Shown piece after piece: positions 588 to 17,858 of a stretch of DNA of 35,663 nt. Source of the DNA: a virus (Duplodnaviria; Caudoviricetes); the IMG/VR virus record IMGVR_UViG_3300048998_000032, positions 1 through 35,663 of that record; one strand, 5' to 3'. Under the pieces are notes generated by a model, which was not told where the DNA came from, searched no databases, and saw nothing but the letters and a program-made list of their open reading frames with translations. The translations under genes and the position numbers were made by a program. Each line of letters starts with the position of its first letter. Position 1 is the stretch's first letter.

Positions 588-612
588 GTCTCTCCCTCGA
601 TTTGCTGTCTCG

Positions 613-677
613 GTTGGTCCTGATAGACCAACACCGCGAACCTACCATCGGCAGATTCACGATGCAAGTGCATCAGG
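613..677 (-). promoter_or_regulatory. repeated promoter/hairpin element, copy 1 (TTGCAT-N17-TAGGTT)
   Basis: -35 at 667-662 and -10 at 644-639 inside a ~28-bp imperfect hairpin, followed by a TTGGTC..GACCAA hairpin; homologous to 1724-1787 and 3224-3286. Confidence 0.75.
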
Positions 678-984
678 CGAGGTTGATTCCTTCGCTCATG
701 AGCCAGGAGAAGTGCACCGTGTACTCACGATGCTGTAGGCCGCCGTAGACGGCCATTCTCCATGTCCAGTGCTCGCCCTCGATAGGGTAGAGCATGACAT
801 CGGAGCAGGCCGGTATCTGGATGCCATCGGGCATCATTACCGGCTCAATGACCAGAGCCTTCTTGCCGTACATCTTCGGGTTATTGATCCCCTTAGGCTT
901 CTCCGCCTGGGACTCTATCCAGGCTTGGCAGTTTGTGCAACAGCCGGAACCTCCGAGATGAAGCGACGCCTGATCTACCATCAT
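673..984 (-). CDS. hypothetical protein, 103 aa, with a CxxC motif
   Basis: 4-nt ATGA overlap with upstream ORF 981-1388; GAGG RBS; CCTNC motif. Confidence 0.75.
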   Translation of the reverse strand: MMVDQASLHLGGSGCCTNCQAWIESQAEKPKGINNPKMYGKKALVIEPVMMPDGIQIPACSDVMLYPIEGEHWTWRMAVYGGLQHREYTVHFSWLMSEGINLA

Positions 985-1388
985 CTCACCTCACTGTAGT
1001 GCATCATCTTGAGCCATTCCATGTACACATTCGGAATGACTTCGATGCTGTGCCATGACGCGCCCTGATGGGCCATGTCATTGATCCCTTGGGCGTGGTG
1101 CAGAGCGTACTCGCTCAGACCGAGCCACCCTGCACCAATCAGCAGGTCCAGGGTCAGGACGCCTTGAGCGTCCCGTGAATCAGCGAGCTGATCCTCACCA
1201 TACCCCATGGCTACCATAATGGCATCCAGAAGGCGCGGTGAGCGACTGAACGGCTCTTGCTTGCAGCAGTGTTGCGCCGCTTGCATGAACCCTACATCGT
1301 CTCTAGCCATTGTGCAACCCCTCGATAGACTGAGTAGTCCGAACCGCATCCACAGGGGATCGAACCCCATGGATGCGACTCTAATCAC
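981..1388 (-). CDS. hypothetical protein, 135 aa
   Basis: ORF packed between 1397 and 984; start codon uncertain. Confidence 0.7.
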   Translation of the reverse strand: MIRVASMGFDPLWMRFGLLSLSRGCTMARDDVGFMQAAQHCCKQEPFSRSPRLLDAIMVAMGYGEDQLADSRDAQGVLTLDLLIGAGWLGLSEYALHHAQGINDMAHQGASWHSIEVIPNVYMEWLKMMHYSEVR

Positions 1389-1396
1389 TCACTCAT

Positions 1397-1699
1397 TCAC
1401 GCTGCCATGGGCAGCGGTTCGTACGGCGTCACCGTGTAGGTGAAGATCGTGGCACCCTCGGTACCCAGGTGCATAGTCCCGAAGTCCGGCAGTGCCTGCC
1501 GGGCGATGCCCATCGAGTAGTCGAACATCTCGGCCCACTTCTCGTCGGCCAGACCCTCGGCCTTGAGCTTGGACCAGCGCATTTCCAGGTCACGGTGGAC
1601 CTGGCGCCAGGCCAGCTCAATGGTCGGGTGTGAGCTTTCGCTCACCACCGTACCACCCAGGTCCGTAACGGTCAAGGTGGATTCCATCTTGCGAGGCAT
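1397..1699 (-). CDS. hypothetical protein, ~100 aa
   Basis: start moved to ATG 1699, which follows GAGGGAG; downstream of promoter copy 2. Confidence 0.75.
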   Translation of the reverse strand: MPRKMESTLTVTDLGGTVVSESSHPTIELAWRQVHRDLEMRWSKLKAEGLADEKWAEMFDYSMGIARQALPDFGTMHLGTEGATIFTYTVTPYEPLPMAA

Positions 1700-1723
1700 A
1701 TCCGTCTCCCTCATGCTCTATGC

Positions 1724-1787
1724 TTGGTTCTGATGAACCAACACCATCACCCTACACTCGGTAGAGGGATGATGCAAGACCATCAGG
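1724..1787 (-). promoter_or_regulatory. repeated promoter/hairpin element, copy 2 (TTGCAT-N17-TAGGGT)
   Basis: -35 at 1777-1772, -10 at 1754-1749; same architecture as copy 1 with compensatory changes. Confidence 0.75.
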
Positions 1788-1788
1788 T

Positions 1789-1893
1789 CTACTTGTCTAG
1801 TGGAGCCAGAAGGCTCAGCTTGTCACTGAACGGGTTAATCAGTGGAGCAATGAACCCGAACAGGACGATCAGCTCGAACAGGTGCTCTGTCAC
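1789..1893 (-). CDS. small hydrophobic peptide, 34 aa (MTEHLFELIVLFGFIAPLINPFSDKLSLLAPLDK)
   Basis: not in the ORF track; GTG overlaps the TGA of ORF 1890-2162 (GTGA); AGGAG RBS; fills the gap exactly. Confidence 0.6.
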   Translation of the reverse strand: MTEHLFELIVLFGFIAPLINPFSDKLSLLAPLDK

Positions 1894-2162
1894 CAGGGGC
1901 TCCTGACGCTGTTGTCCTTGCGGTACGTGGTCGGCTTAGGAGCGAACCACAGTTCGCCTGTGGTGTTCCTCTGCCGCAGTGAAGGCGCCTTGCTGGCCTT
2001 CACCCTACCACGTCCTCCCGTGTCCTTGGATACACCATCGTCGTATTCGAGTGACGGTGCTCCGTTGCCGACCTGCATCCGCCGTTTGGCAACAGCCTTG
2101 CGTGCCTCTCGGCCCCGCTTGCTGCCGTCCTTCGGCTTGAGCATCGGATTCTTGAGACCCAT
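1890..2162 (-). CDS. basic (K/R-rich) hypothetical protein, 90 aa
   Basis: start moved to ATG 2162 after GGAGG; the upstream part of track ORF 1890-2405 lies in structured non-coding sequence. Confidence 0.7.
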   Translation of the reverse strand: MGLKNPMLKPKDGSKRGREARKAVAKRRMQVGNGAPSLEYDDGVSKDTGGRGRVKASKAPSLRQRNTTGELWFAPKPTTYRKDNSVRSPW

Positions 2163-2169
2163 CGTAACC

Positions 2170-2606
2170 TCCGTTGGATTGCTTGTCCACCAGGACTCAC
2201 CGAAGTCTGGAATGTTGCTCCCTCCGTATTCGGTGAACCCCGGAAGACCTTCGTTCCGGCCTGTGTGCCTCACACCTTGCGGTGTGTGGCCCGTTGGCCG
2301 ATCCGAAGAATCTTGGGAGATTCTTGGATCCGAATGCCAATGAGATCCTACCCCATCGCTCATTCGTCGTGCAAGCCTAAACACGAATCTCGTCACCATC
2401 CCCAACCGTCAGTGGTCCAACGGGGTACCAGAGATGTTTACCGATCAACCGGCAAGCACTGTATCATTGCAACGCGCTGGCAGTCCAGTTCCACGTTCGC
2501 CCGGCACCGAGTGGTCAGGACTCACCTGATTCCACGGTGGGAAACCTCCCGCAAGGGAGATCGTACCCCGGTAACTCTCGCTTCCCTATCGTGCGGCACA
2601 CGCCAC
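2170..2606 (-). ncRNA. candidate large structured ncRNA or 5' leader (~440 nt)
   Basis: promoter TTGACA(2641-2636)-N17-AAGACT; long-range helix CGGGGTAC/GTACCCCG (2570-2563 with 2428-2421) enclosing several hairpins; more hairpins down to 2170, including a GCAA tetraloop. Confidence 0.5.
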
Positions 2607-2612
2607 GTGATA

Positions 2613-2641
2613 AGTCTTCACACTGTAAGCCCGCCTGTCAA
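2613..2641 (-). promoter_or_regulatory. sigma70/HrdB-type promoter TTGACA-N17-AAGACT
   Basis: consensus -35 with 17-nt spacer; -35 lies inside the TGTCAAG..CTTGACA inverted repeat (2636-2660). Confidence 0.55.
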
Positions 2642-2644
2642 GTA

Positions 2645-2850
2645 GGACGTTCCCTTGACATCGGCCGCCTAAGCGGCTGTGACCTTCGGGGCTGGTGTAG
2701 CGCTCCCTTACGTTGCCGCAAGAGTCAACCCTCATCGGACAGCTTCCCCGTGGTTTCACACGGGCTCGCAGTGTTGCATGTAGTTGGTAGGCCCGGACCG
2801 CGCCTTGCAGGGCTGGTCTGCCTGTTGCGCCAGGTTCGGCGCCTCGTTCT
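2645..2850 (-). ncRNA. candidate structured ncRNA (~200 nt)
   Basis: follows the promoter at 2885; consecutive hairpins (GCGCC/GGCGC, CCGTG/CACGG, CTCTTGC/GTAAGGG, GCCGC/GCGGC); no RBS-led ORF. Confidence 0.4.
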
Positions 2851-2856
2851 GGTGTA

Positions 2857-2885
2857 ACCCTACACCCCGTTGCCGGGGCTGTCAA
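2857..2885 (-). promoter_or_regulatory. promoter TTGACA-N17-TAGGGT with a GCAA-loop hairpin in the spacer
   Basis: near-perfect actinobacterial housekeeping consensus; spacer GCCCCG-GCAA-CGGGGT. Confidence 0.7.
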
Positions 2886-2970
2886 GCCCTGGTCTGTCGA
2901 TCCGCATCGGATGGCAGGGAACAACCTGCGTTCCCCGGTCCGACTTGGATGCCTAGCCCCAGGTGGTGAA

Positions 2971-3001
2971 ACCTTACCACACCTTGCGGTGTGTCTGTCA
3001 A
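2971..3001 (-). promoter_or_regulatory. possible promoter TTGACA-N19-TAAGGT with a GCAA-loop hairpin in the spacer
   Basis: consensus -35 but long spacer; CACACC-GCAA-GGTGTG hairpin is repeated exactly at 2271-2287. Confidence 0.45.
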
Positions 3002-3223
3002 GTCCGGATCGTTTCGACCGAAGCCGTGTGACCGAACCTAACGGTGCGAGCTTACCAGCTCCCCCCGGCTCCCGCAACTCCTGTCCTACAGCTTCCCGCC
3101 CGACGTTCCGGACGGTCCGCCAGGACCGATCATGCGGGTACCTAGGGAGCCTGTAGAGCCTGCGGTGGAGAGCGTACCACAGGTAGAGGCCCATGGGGCT
3201 TGCCTGCCTTGCACGCTGTCCGG

Positions 3224-3286
3224 CTGGTCTAGAAGACCAACACCGTCACCCTAGCATGAGCTAGGGGAACGATGCAAGTGCTCTAG
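3224..3286 (-). promoter_or_regulatory. repeated promoter/hairpin element, copy 3 (TTGCAT-N18-TAGGGT)
   Basis: -35 at 3277-3272, -10 at 3253-3248; 27-bp imperfect hairpin; followed by non-coding structured sequence rather than a gene. Confidence 0.75.
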
Positions 3287-3489
3287 CTGAACGCGTTGAA
3301 CGGGGTGGAGCGGTTCCGGCACTCGGCCAGGTTGATACCCAGGGTATCCGCCAGGTTGGAGAGCTTGAACAGGTTCTGCTCAAGCCCGATCGGGCCGGTC
3401 TGCCGTTCCATCTTCCGGGCGGTCCCGCCCATCCGGCGGGCCGCTTCCTGTGCAACCCCAAGGTAGCGCATCCCCTGCGTGCTGTCCAT
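3283..3489 (-). CDS. hypothetical protein, 68 aa
   Basis: GGGAGG RBS; own promoter at 3531-3559. Confidence 0.75.
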   Translation of the reverse strand: MDSTQGMRYLGVAQEAARRMGGTARKMERQTGPIGLEQNLFKLSNLADTLGINLAECRNRSTPFNAFS

Positions 3490-3530
3490 CGCTGGCCTCC
3501 CGGTCGGTGTGTTCGTTGCTGACAGGGATA

Positions 3531-3559
3531 ACTCTGCTCCCCTCGGGCACCCCTGTCAA
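3531..3559 (-). promoter_or_regulatory. promoter TTGACA-N17-CAGAGT
   Basis: consensus -35, 17-nt spacer; bracketed by a TGACAGGG/CCCTGTCA inverted repeat. Confidence 0.55.
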
Positions 3560-3571
3560 GGGGGTAGCCCG

Positions 3572-3587
3572 TGTGACCTAGGTCACA
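3572..3587. promoter_or_regulatory. perfect 16-bp palindrome TGTGACCTAGGTCACA, CRP/GlxR-type operator
   Basis: exact match to TGTGA-N6-TCACA, between two leftward promoters. Confidence 0.55.
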
Positions 3588-3619
3588 TCGTGTACGTGAG
3601 TAACGAAGGAACACGCGCG

Positions 3620-3648
3620 TACCTACCATGGCTGACCTAGTGTGTCAA
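3620..3648 (-). promoter_or_regulatory. possible promoter TTGACA-N17-TAGGTA
   Basis: consensus -35, 17-nt spacer; -10 lacks the final T. Confidence 0.4.
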
Positions 3649-3751
3649 TGGGTGTGGTGTGTGGTGTTGGGCACATAGTCAAAAACAGACAGACCGTTCT
3701 GTCTACCCCACCTATACAGTGTACAGTTACAGGATTATTACCCTAAAACCC

Positions 3752-3780
3752 TTGACATCAGGGCTTGACCCGGGCATACT
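3752..3780 (+). promoter_or_regulatory. rightward promoter TTGACA-N17-CATACT
   Basis: consensus -35 and 17-nt spacer, pointing toward the terminase operon. Confidence 0.55.
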
Positions 3781-3881
3781 TAACCCGGCCCCACCCCCCT
3801 GTACCTACTATCTACCCGTAAATTTCCTCCCAACGCTCTGACCTGCATGTATAGTGTGCTAGGCAAGCCATCGCACACCAG

Positions 3882-4135
3882 TTTCAAAGCTAAGGGTATA
3901 AGCTTTGAAATATACCTCCCTATATATATAGTGAGAGCTTCGCTAGAAGCTCGAACGCTTCAGCTCTCACCCTAACAGTGAGACCCTAAGGTCTCACACT
4001 CACAGCGGTTCGTTTAGCTCACCGCTGCTAGGAAGCCCCAAGGCTTCCTTTGGGGAAGCCTCGGAGCGGAATTATGGAAGCGGAGAGGCTGGGGACTTCA
4101 GTCCTGGCGGACGTTCGTCCCCTCTAGAGCGGAGG
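3882..4135. repeat. AT-rich cluster of inverted repeats (candidate origin or packaging region)
   Basis: TTTCAAAGCT/AGCTTTGAAA (3882-3910), (TA)5 at 3921-3930, GTGAGAGCT/AGCTCTCAC, GTGAGACC/GGTCTCAC, GGAAGCC/GGCTTCC. Confidence 0.55.
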
Positions 4136-4156
4136 GACTGCTGGAACGGAGCGATA

Positions 4157-6082
4157 GTGCCAAAGAGGGATTACAGGGCTAAGGCCCTGTCGGCTGATGA
4201 AGCCAAGAGGGTGTACCTCGATGGTATCGCAGCGGGACTCAGCAGACTAGACGCTCTCGCGCCTACGGGGCGCTCAAGCATTAAAACCGTTGACAACTGG
4301 ATGGCGAGTGACCGCGAGTTCGCGGAACGAGTCAAGGACATCCGCATCGGACGCACCGAGGCTAAGACCCGTGGTGTGGACCAGGACGTAGCGAACATTG
4401 GGTTCGCCGATTGGCGTAAGCAGTTCCTGGGTGTGGACACGTTCCCCCACCAGCAGGCATGGATCGACCTTCTGGAAGGTCGTGAGTACACTCCTCGCCA
4501 GGGCGAGACCTATGAGCCTTCTGACCTTAACCGCCTCATCGTCAACGTCCCGCCGTTCCATGCCAAGTCTTCTACGCTGACCATCGACTATCCGGTCTAC
4601 CGGATCTGCATGAACCCGAACGTTCGTATCATCATCGTCTCTAAGCGTCTGGACCAGGCCAAGAAGTTCCTGTACGCTATCAAGACCCGGCTGACATCTA
4701 ACCGCTTCGCTGCCCTTCAGGCAGCTTATGCACCCGAGGGTGGCTTTAAGCCCGACCGCGCTGACGGCGCGTCCTGGGGTATGGAGAAGATCTACGTCAG
4801 GGGCGTTGACTCCGGCGAGAAAGATCCCACCGTAGAAGCCCTGGGCATGGGTGGTCAGATCTATGGTAGCCGCGCGGACCTGATCATCATGGATGACTGC
4901 ATCGTGATGTCCAACGCTGGACAATCTGAGCAGCAGATTGCCTGGATTGAGTCCGAGGTTGAGAACCGAGTCCGTGACGGCAAGATCCTGATCGTAGGCA
5001 CCAGGCTTTCACCTAAGGACATGTACAAGGAACTCCGTAACGGAGACCGGTACCTGTCTGGTAGGAGCCCCTGGGGCTACCTGCGGCAGCCTGCGGTGCT
5101 GAGGTACGACGAAGACCCCGAGAAGTGGGAGACCCTCTGGCCCTACTCCACGTCTCCTATGGAGACGGGGCAGAAGCCGGACGAGAATGGCATGTATCCC
5201 GCGTGGCCGGGGCCACGGATGCACATGGAGCGCAATAAGAAGCCTCCGCGCATCTGGGCGCTGGTTTACCAGCAGGAAGACATCTCCGACGATTCAGTGT
5301 TCCATCCGACCTGTGTTGCCGGATCGGTGAACCGTATGCGCAAACCAGGGCCTATGGCCGCTGGTGCCCCTGGCCATGCCCCTAACGGCATGGAGGGTCA
5401 GTACATCATCGCCTCTATGGACCCTGCTATGACCGGAGATACGTTCTCCCTGGTGATGGCAGTGGACAAGTACGCTGATGCTGGCAAGGTTAACCGCAGA
5501 ATCCTGAACGCCTGGCTCAAGACTTCACCTACACCAGCCTACATCCGTGACCACATCAAGATGGTGACCGAGCAGTTCGGTGTAGATGAGTGGGTCATCG
5601 AGCAGAACGCATTCCAGCTATTCCTCATCCACGATGAGGACATCAACCGCTACCTTCAGCAGCGTGGTGTGAAGCTGACGCCTCACTATACCAGCCGGAA
5701 CAAGCAGGACCCGGACTTCGGTGTAGCCTCTGTGGCTCCACTGTTCGGTAACCTCATCCAACGTCCCGATGGCCACAGGAACGGTGTCGATCACGCAGGT
5801 GATCACATCATTGAACTGCCCGATCCTGACAAATCCGAGGGCATTAAGGCCCTGATCGAGCAGCTCACGTCCTGGCAGCCCGGTAAACTGGGCAAGGAAC
5901 TGAAGATGGATGGGCCTATGGCCCTATGGTTTGCTGAGCTAAGGGCTCGATCCCTCATGGGGATCGGCCGCAAGAGCCAGAAAACACACCTTGATAATCC
6001 GTATCTGTCCCGTTCCGACAGGGCCAAGCAGTCCGTCGTGACCACGGAGGCTTTTAGAAAGCTAATGGAAGAGAGATTCTAG
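4157..6082 (+). CDS. terL: terminase large subunit
   Basis: Q-motif HQQAW, Walker A-like VPPFHAKS, Walker B LIIMDD, coupling motif VGT, nuclease ASMDPA, IEQNAFQ, C-terminal DGPMALW. Confidence 0.93.
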   Translation: MPKRDYRAKALSADEAKRVYLDGIAAGLSRLDALAPTGRSSIKTVDNWMASDREFAERVKDIRIGRTEAKTRGVDQDVANIGFADWRKQFLGVDTFPHQQAWIDLLEGREYTPRQGETYEPSDLNRLIVNVPPFHAKSSTLTIDYPVYRICMNPNVRIIIVSKRLDQAKKFLYAIKTRLTSNRFAALQAAYAPEGGFKPDRADGASWGMEKIYVRGVDSGEKDPTVEALGMGGQIYGSRADLIIMDDCIVMSNAGQSEQQIAWIESEVENRVRDGKILIVGTRLSPKDMYKELRNGDRYLSGRSPWGYLRQPAVLRYDEDPEKWETLWPYSTSPMETGQKPDENGMYPAWPGPRMHMERNKKPPRIWALVYQQEDISDDSVFHPTCVAGSVNRMRKPGPMAAGAPGHAPNGMEGQYIIASMDPAMTGDTFSLVMAVDKYADAGKVNRRILNAWLKTSPTPAYIRDHIKMVTEQFGVDEWVIEQNAFQLFLIHDEDINRYLQQRGVKLTPHYTSRNKQDPDFGVASVAPLFGNLIQRPDGHRNGVDHAGDHIIELPDPDKSEGIKALIEQLTSWQPGKLGKELKMDGPMALWFAELRARSLMGIGRKSQKTHLDNPYLSRSDRAKQSVVTTEAFRKLMEERF

Positions 6083-17710: not shown

Positions 17711-17782
17711 CGCGGGATGGTGTAAAGGAAACACACCTGGCTCATAACCAGGATGATATGGGTTCGAGTCCCATTCCCGCCA
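17711..17782 (+). tRNA. tRNA with anticodon CAU (Met; initiator, elongator or Ile2 identity unresolved)
   Basis: acceptor GCGGGA/TCCCGC with C1:C72 mismatch, D-stem GTGT/ACAC, anticodon arm CCTGG-CTCATAA-CCAGG, T arm ATGGG-TTCGAGT-CCCAT; CCA not encoded. Confidence 0.9.
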
Positions 17783-17783
17783 C

Positions 17784-17854
17784 GGGTTGCAAGTGTTACG
17801 GTAGCACTTCGGTCTCCAAAACCGACAGCCGAGGTTCGACTCCTCGGCAGCCCG
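17784..17854 (+). tRNA. tRNA-Trp (CCA)
   Basis: acceptor GGGTTGC/GCAGCCC, G73, anticodon arm TCGGT-CTCCAAA-ACCGA, T arm CGAGG-TTCGACT-CCTCG; 3' CCA not encoded. Confidence 0.92.
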
Positions 17855-17858
17855 CACC

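Follow-up and report, generated by a model that had tools for sequence, protein, structure and literature searches.

A gene-free early genome end in a cluster BF-like actinophage with tandem host-type promoters that may delimit decoy RNA cassettes

Introduction

Non-coding RNA regions at the early genome end and PeSL stem-loops are both already known in phages. In the temperate, stoperator-containing cluster A phages L5, D29 and StarStuff, the single promoter Pleft gives rise to an RNA of ~500 nt (Dedrick et al. 2017, PMC5712189), and the RNAs made from Pleft at the right end of L5 and D29 are described as abundant and toxic; they are processed to 100-400 nt and in part cannot be deleted (PMC5712189). 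Similar RNAs, nc_3, are reported for Rhodococcus phage WC1 (PMC10986025). The PeSL cassettes described for T4-like phages (Comeau 2014, PMC4122927) carry a stem-loop mostly between the -35 and -10 boxes, which is reported to have terminated transcription in one tested case (Arbiol 2010, PMC2839356). In T7, promoters A1-A3 are present at the start of a genome that enters the cell by host transcription (PMC13128918; 10.1101/2021.08.23.457391). Abundant early-end non-coding RNAs of actinophages have been known since L5 and D29, and the leaders of the Streptomyces cluster BF phages make the question of their function concrete.

The locus analysed here is a gene-free island of 1.1 kb in a 35,663-nt phage sequence (IMG/VR record IMGVR_UViG_3300048998_000032; hereafter the window). 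Like Pleft, it is a non-coding region at the early genome end (the window's end being inferred), but it contains five promoters where Pleft is a single repressor-controlled promoter, and the two have no sequence similarity. With the PeSL cassettes it shares a sigma70-type promoter, a predicted stem-loop in the spacer or over the -10 box and repetition, and it may share modular replacement sites, whereas PeSL cassettes end in an SD and have ORFan cargo, and the island would carry RNA cargo, occurs in a different phage lineage and has only putative termination. As in T7 A1-A3, the first early genes are preceded by tandem host promoters at the end of the genome, although the island leader is longer and hairpin-rich, and no phage RNA polymerase was found among the 28 ORFs scanned in the window, which is a partial genome. 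The bacterial rrn leader also places structured RNA behind strong housekeeping promoters in tandem; it is directly copied in BF phages and in phage Gilson, whereas the island contains neither boxA nor rRNA sequence.

The phage and its early genome end

The window comes from an actinophage that resembles the Beephvirinae (cluster BF). Its terminase (4157-6082) is 42-44% identical to TerL of Streptomyces cluster BF (Beephvirinae) phages, which are podoviruses (PMC13097060), and is followed by portal, major head, tail fibre, RNA ligase and dCTP deaminase genes; the metagenome runs containing its DNA are from soil, and the public runs listed for it include none of RNA, which tells neither way. The presence of the BF right-end motif (Table 1) suggests a physical genome end near 3805, in which case leftward early transcription would begin with the island. 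TerL relatives, including L002, L003 and L084, gave blastn matches at 3763-3831.

Contigs of relatives from four public runs (X2-X4 from one study, X5 from another) were compared with the window over 1900-3800. The 68-aa ORF between P1 and the island is a real gene, with 8/10 of its listed changes at third codon positions; its product belongs to no PHROG family, and a homologue search returned only itself. BF phages have a boxA leader where the window has this gene. On the other side of the island, the first early gene is alike in the soil relatives, with X4 and X5 diverging just above 2166. Homologue searches with the two small proteins flanking the island gave no relatives.

The non-coding stretch before the terminase (3841-4140) is strongly palindromic, with z down to -7, and a similar palindromic stretch is present at the left ends of several relatives. 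Adjoining genes for tRNA-Met(CAT) and tRNA-Trp(CCA) are located at 17711-17855 (+), upstream of the scaffold/capsid genes.

Tandem promoters with hairpin spacers

An earlier note on this DNA had reported minus-strand -35/-10 elements at 3277, 3001, 2885 and 2641, all of which are present (P2-P5), and had used them to divide the island into segments of ~240, 80, 200 and 440 nt. The first three segments stand, but the fourth is split into ~230 and ~170 nt by a further promoter at 2374 (P6). The -10/start motif of P1 recurs in 10 BF-like loci and in L001 and L002. A repeat search showed P2 to be paralogous with the promoters at 1777 and 667, and the tract 3222-3289, which includes P2, is replaced by 124 other letters in three runs. 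A stringent pattern, defined post hoc, had nine matches in the whole window, seven of which are on the minus strand at 940-3277. The promoters are very probably active.

A stem-loop between the -35 and -10 boxes or over the -10 box is predicted for the promoters at 3277, 3001, 2885, 2374, 1777 and 667, and not for 2641; only the hairpins at 3277, 1777 and 667 are more stable than 95% of random 38-mers, and those at 1777 and 667 are accompanied by a 5' hairpin like that of P2. Scanning IMG/VR with the P3 -35 box and spacer gave 26 matches in 18 distinct contexts with a GC content of 36-67%. All 26 are directly followed by a TAnnnT hexamer, which was outside the search pattern and has a background of 0.016, and the GCAA hairpin is therefore a widespread phage promoter-spacer motif. 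The identical GCAA hairpin spacer was seen in promoters of unrelated phages (L279-L304).

No SD with an ORFan is found directly behind P2-P5, whereas an SD and ORFan are present behind the promoters at 2374 (after 170 nt), 1777 and 667. The units are not separated by any U-tract terminator, the longest T run being 3, and this makes termination of the classical kind less likely in an actinobacterium; mycobacterial RNAP is reported to require a U-tract to terminate (PMC3993855).

Table 1. Features of the island, its surroundings and the corresponding leaders of other phages. Positions are those of the window unless preceded by a locus number (L).
Feature	Position	Strand	Remarks
BF right-end motif	3767..3805	-	motif at 3783; sits ~22 nt inside BF physical right ends
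P1, first early promoter	3518..3559	-	TTGACA-17-CAGAGT; start motif is that of BF P1
68-aa orphan protein gene	3283..3489	-	between P1 and island; codon-position bias
P2	3240..3277	-	TTGCAT-18-TAGGGT; folds into long hairpin
S1	3002..3241	-	predicted; 5' hairpin 3241-3223, rod 3221-3167, 112-nt irregular rod 3160-3049
Possible UUCG hairpin in S1	3026-3015	-	predicted
P3	2971..3001	-	TTGACA-19-TAAGGT, extended -10; spacer hairpin CACACC-GCAA-GGTGTG at 2993-2978
S2	2886..2964	-	predicted; ~80-nt rod from start site to next -35
P4	2857..2885	-	TTGACA-17-TAGGGT; GCAA spacer hairpin
S3	2642..2850	-	contains hairpin 2724-2705 behind TTGACT without -10 box, a degenerate promoter cassette
P5	2613..2641	-	TTGACA-17-AAGACT, extended -10; without spacer hairpin
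S4	2375..2606	-	predicted; multi-hairpin region, stability at shuffle level
P6	2345..2374	-	TTGCAC-18-TAGGAT; hairpin over -10; absent from the earlier note
S5	2170..2338	-	strongly folded leader of first early gene; rod 2248-2185
First early gene (90 aa)	1890..2172	-	from sequence; ATG 2162, GGAGG RBS 2172-2168
Same-family promoters before small early genes	600..1790	-	at 1777, 1317, 940 and 667; pattern scan
BF module B	L069:5208-5319	-	~110-nt covarying rod, unannotated; equivalents in 12 BF isolates
16S nt ~229-305 copy (Stella)	L077:470-578	+	inside gene-free early leader
16S nt ~229-305 copy (Omar)	L274:598-665	+	inside gene-free early leader
16S nt ~229-305 copy	L258:1261-1335	+	inside gene-free early leader
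16S nt ~229-305 copy	L259:1340-1414	+	inside gene-free early leader
16S nt ~229-305 copy	L260:1-52	+	inside gene-free early leader
16S nt ~229-305 copy	L261:1644-1689	-	inside gene-free early leader
16S nt ~229-305 copy	L262:1118-1187	-	inside gene-free early leader
16S nt ~400-428 copy (RosePharie)	L072:1411-1439		early leader
16S nt ~400-428 copy	L259:1313-1339		early leader
Phage helix-11 stretch	L275:1501-1548		unrelated phage
Phage helix-11 stretch	L276:1501-1548		unrelated phage
Phage helix-11 stretch	L277:1501-1543		unrelated phage
Phage helix-11 stretch	L278:1501-1543		unrelated phage

Absence of protein-coding genes from the island

The region 2170-3243 contains no credible RBS-led ORF, which bears out its earlier description as gene-free. 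SD-like letters precede 11 of its starts, and by reading none of these has a canonical, well-spaced SD. The island is almost certainly non-coding. Translation of ORF 2586-3194 (202 aa) or of small leaderless ORFs, with the RNA folding as a side effect, is highly improbable, even though the 202-codon frame stays open in the window and leaderless mRNAs are in use among actinobacteria. The soil relatives, which are ~93-96% identical, carry a 1-nt deletion at 2802 that breaks this ORF in 3/4 runs (X3, X4, X5) and a 106-to-74-nt replacement at 2863-2970 that disrupts it in 3/4 runs (X2-X4). Its 18 listed substitutions are distributed 6/5/7 over codon positions 1/2/3, showing no bias, and it has neither an RBS nor a PHROG family; it is not a conserved gene. 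The 40 substitution rows examined, of a total of 135, include 18 in the island, most of the variants in 2133-2660 and the 28 changes of X5 in 2761-3015 lying outside them.

Predicted folding of the segments

Folding was better than in shuffled controls in S1 (z -3.0, 3243-3002), S2 (z -2.2, 2966-2886) and S5 (z -5.1, 2339-2170), but no better in S3 (z -0.75, 2851-2642) and S4 (z -0.5, 2607-2375). The segments had been described as nearly continuously base-paired, which is not the case, their paired fraction being 0.61-0.69 compared with 0.56-0.66 in shuffles. Over stretches of 120 nt, mean z is -1.8 for the island (n=18), -2.5 for the early genes beside it (n=27) and -1.1 for the remainder of the window (n=78), so that the island does not exceed those genes in folding; for 541-2220 the mean is likewise -2.5, compared with -1.1 elsewhere. 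Early protein genes are unusually fold-prone on their sense strand (541-2160 and 3241-3480, minus strand).

The tetraloop hairpins noted earlier on the minus strand are in excess, with five GNRA/UNCG-capped hairpins found and 0.8 expected (1000 shuffles, p=0.001), compared with two on the plus strand (p=0.14), but most of this signal belongs to the promoters. Three are located behind TTGAC in promoter-type spacers, a fourth duplicates a spacer hairpin as an orphan, and 1/5 is independent of this motif. A search for repeats and inverted repeats located an orphan copy of the P3 spacer hairpin in S5 (2286-2271).

Global folding did not show the segments as self-contained domains, a test that is weak because the BF examples are negative too. 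The best ungapped long-range leader-trailer helices were of 13-14 bp including G.U pairs, which is nothing striking for a comparison with no null run. A 23-nt imperfect repeat with a 7-nt core occurs on the minus strand at 3097-3075, 2748-2726 and 2586, and an 11-mer is present twice, at 2526 and 2201; short repeats of this kind, common to several segments, are possible protein-binding sites.

Sequence variation among soil relatives

Variants in the relatives give real but thin support for RNA structure. The earlier note had named covariation in homologues as a check, and one hairpin does covary, although the evidence comes from one contig of one run: in X4, hairpin 2724-2705 changes a C-G pair to U-A, a U-A pair to G-C and a U.G pair to C-G while keeping all 8 pairs (P=0.005 for five random changes). 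Because no -10 box accompanies this hairpin, its covariation is not accounted for by a role in a promoter; a local scan for the hairpin matched 0/304 loci. Among changes at pairs with P>=0.8, 8/10 preserve pairing and 2/10 break it when taken singly (3096, 3159), and 3159 adjoins two indels which, by reading, re-pair the rod base. Within the rod 3160-3049, two changes retain pairs and two, taken singly, disrupt them. A further four changes are at less certain pairs, three of them disrupting the top-ranked pair, and four more are at mainly unpaired sites. S1 is ~96% conserved among the relatives, and S2 is replaced in X2-X4 and retained but diverged in X5. Both replaced tracts, 3222-3289 and 2863-2970, include promoters.

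The corresponding region of BF phages

Gene-free right ends of 1.39-1.75 kb were found in 5/5 BF records measured, and one of 1.31 kb in phage Omar. Among further BF records, 6/7 have no gene at the right end, and Stella has two opposite-strand calls. The BF leader is laid out as P1, boxA, P2, rod, P3, branched module, boxA, module and RBS. The rod (module B) spans the interval from the P2 start to the P3 -35 box, adopts an irregular rod fold in each of 12 isolates and has invariant loop letters. In an unfitted alignment, two-sided changes were present at 12/22 of its pairs, compared with 0/500 shuffles and with 3-5 pairs in slid controls. The fitted alignment gives 15/25 pairs, but it is biased towards the model, and one of its rows is probably false. 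A covariance model built from four isolates matched the other eight BF isolates (six in full, E<=3e-6, and two in part) and also matched further IMG/VR loci; the rod was not found in Rfam in scans of 8 BF loci. TerL relatives at 50-70% identity often have short leaders, such as that of ~250 nt in L084. Other TerL relatives have gene-free leaders of their own, L006:800-1077 (-) with internal repeats and L001:1-450 (-) with several TTGAC promoters and a boxA-like motif.

The BF leaders and the island have the same position, a homologous first promoter and tandem TTGACA promoters with hairpin spacers, and both the BF rod and, by prediction, S2 pair their start with the nucleotides that immediately precede the next -35 box. 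BF leaders contain the rrn boxA and in some cases 16S rRNA helices, whereas the island has neither: boxA had no match with <=3 mismatches in the island and none in the window, and the best scores for segments derived from 16S, 23S or 5S rRNA were at shuffle level, with one Streptomyces rrn as reference. The BF rod models R1 and R2 gave nothing below E=4 in the island, the best match being at S2 (E=4.2), R1 being uninformative as it is built on a poor RNAalifold consensus. With no boxA, rRNA match or significant rod match, the link between the window and the BF phages is one of position, first promoter and design only.

The earlier note could match the island to no RNA family that it knew, and an Rfam covariance scan with all families, including GOLLD, ROOL, 6S, SRP and rRNA, agrees, its best matches having E values of 1.6 and 6.9. 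No homologue was found by blastn in 50,697 phage records or among TerL-neighbour loci from IMG/VR and JGI (24 + 23 loci), and pattern scans found no island-like loci. Several candidate likenesses were rejected. A helix-11 look-alike at 2983-2964 (16/20 letters, E 2.6) was equalled in 7% of shuffles and 12.5% of 112 genome controls, and neither a 23S-like stretch near 2430 nor an h44-like reading of BF module C was supported by rRNA comparison. Homology of the S1 5' rod to BF module B is suggestive by eye and not significant, nhmmer with the BF modules matching 3239-3187 at E=0.02 on 4.2 kb and 0.17 on the window, with five modules tried.

Ribosomal RNA elements in BF-like leaders

The motif that we take to be boxA is present in 18/20 BF-like leaders and lies 150-200 nt upstream of 16S in 10/10 Streptomyces loci checked, of 120 returned. 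A sense-orientation copy of 16S nt ~229-305, presumably helices 11-12, was found in 6/20 BF-like leaders, two of which (L260 and L261) appear to be one sequence, and in Omar. The copies of nt ~400-428 would correspond to what we take to be helix 16. The Stella copy scores 85 bits with the SSU model, above the Rfam cut-off, and joins model positions 106-311 into a mini-domain from which ~97 middle positions are removed. The same Rfam scan detected 16S pieces in 3/10 relatives' loci. Phage Gilson carries ~150 nt copied from the Streptomyces rrn leader, boxA included (L078:2395-2548, E 1e-14). Gilson is a large Stanwilliamsviridae phage that is gene-free at 1135-2897, and MeganTheeKilla and Francob match likewise. 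A literature search covering few subscription papers returned no account of BF leader RNAs and no report of phage-borne 16S helix 11.

Possible roles of the island

We tentatively interpret the locus as a gene-free early-promoter end where five tandem host-type promoters, most of them folded into a hairpin, would delimit RNA cassettes that may be decoys for host RNA-binding proteins. The host sigma-A/HrdB polymerase would start at P1-P6 as soon as the DNA has entered, in the manner of T7 A1-A3, and the hairpin in the next promoter would attenuate the upstream RNA or protect its 3' end in the way of PeSL stem-loops. The products would be RNAs of ~80-260 nt, together with read-through into the early genes. 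S1, S2 and S5 would form stable rods, and the cassette RNAs would accumulate early in infection, as do those of L5/D29 Pleft, and titrate host translation or ribosome assembly factors or defence RNases. The production of discrete stable RNAs is fairly probable, and their action in trans as decoys is somewhat less likely than not. Since the relatives fill this slot with rRNA parts, the best functional guess is a decoy for ribosome-related or rRNA-attacking proteins. The 16S fragments in those leaders thus offer indirect support for the decoy idea of the earlier note, although none is detectable in the island; its proposal of a multi-RNA cassette expressed by host RNA polymerase is partly upheld, by the non-coding character, the host-type promoters and some selected structure, but not in the two segments that fold at shuffle level.

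The layout of the island also fits an ordinary genome-end early-promoter array (T7 A1-A3, L5 Pleft). A cis-acting array of the T7 type, which loads polymerases, pulls the genome in and drives the early genes, is a somewhat doubtful explanation that has the T7 precedent of entry by host transcription; PeSL-like hairpins would tune read-through and act as recombination linkers, and the RNAs would be stable by-products or nested leaders with no role in trans. It accords with the generality of the spacer hairpin in phage promoters (26/26), the fold-rich nature of the entire early region, coding parts included, the frequently short leaders at 50-70% TerL identity and the inclusion of promoters in both replaced tracts, and it would make the island ordinary if it alone holds. 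It does not account, however, for the retention of the 112-nt S1 rod at ~96% identity, for covariation in a hairpin that has no -10 box, for the invariant loop letters of the BF rod or for the 16S helices that occupy this slot. It is unlikely that the folded RNA instead acts in cis on the elongating polymerase in place of the BF boxA signal, whether as a nascent-RNA antiterminator like HK022 put, a two-stem RNA that modifies RNAP, or by masking the sites at which Rho would load on an untranslated leader of 1 kb. Such a role would suit the presence of boxA in most BF-like leaders and its absence from the window, the 5' hairpin directly after the start common to the promoters at 3277, 1777 and 667, and a leader with G>C (0.33 vs 0.28), G>C RNA being a poor Rho substrate. 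The base composition of the island is nevertheless that of the early genes, there is no likeness to any Rfam antiterminator family, and rods of 100 nt are not needed for antitermination.

Helix 11 in unrelated phages

Beyond the decoy reading, it is conceivable, though rather unlikely, that the first transcript of lytic actinophages is a modular array, bounded by promoters, of RNAs that mimic the ribosome. Relatives would use literal 16S modules (helices 7+11+12 and helix 16) and the rrn boxA, and the window phage sequence-diverged structural equivalents; on entry, the RNAs would flood the cell and sequester ribosomal proteins, assembly factors or the defence nucleases that cleave rRNA. The window, having the cassette design without rRNA letters, marks how far the design can drift. 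Phage-borne 16S helix 11 is the more surprising part, but it is seen in the relatives and not in the window. Ribosomal protein uS17 binds 16S helix 11. In the culturable BF phages Stella, Immanuel3 and Manuel, and in Omar, the slot holds covarying RNA modules, rrn boxA and 16S helices, turning the question of function into specific tests, such as the binding of uS17 or of a nuclease to the helix-11 module.

The stretch 16S nt 235-277/282 is also present in unrelated Jedunavirus, Yersinia and Shewanella phages, where it is 93-95% identical to a Streptomyces 16S, which suggests repeated capture of one rRNA helix. If the ribosome-mimic view is true, the capture of helix 11 by mutually unrelated phages of Streptomyces, enterobacteria and Shewanella would point to one host target that has gone unrecognised. 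The helix-11 copy of phage ZCEC13 lies inside a stretch of ~550 nt that contains only tiny ORF calls and ends in a U-tract terminator.
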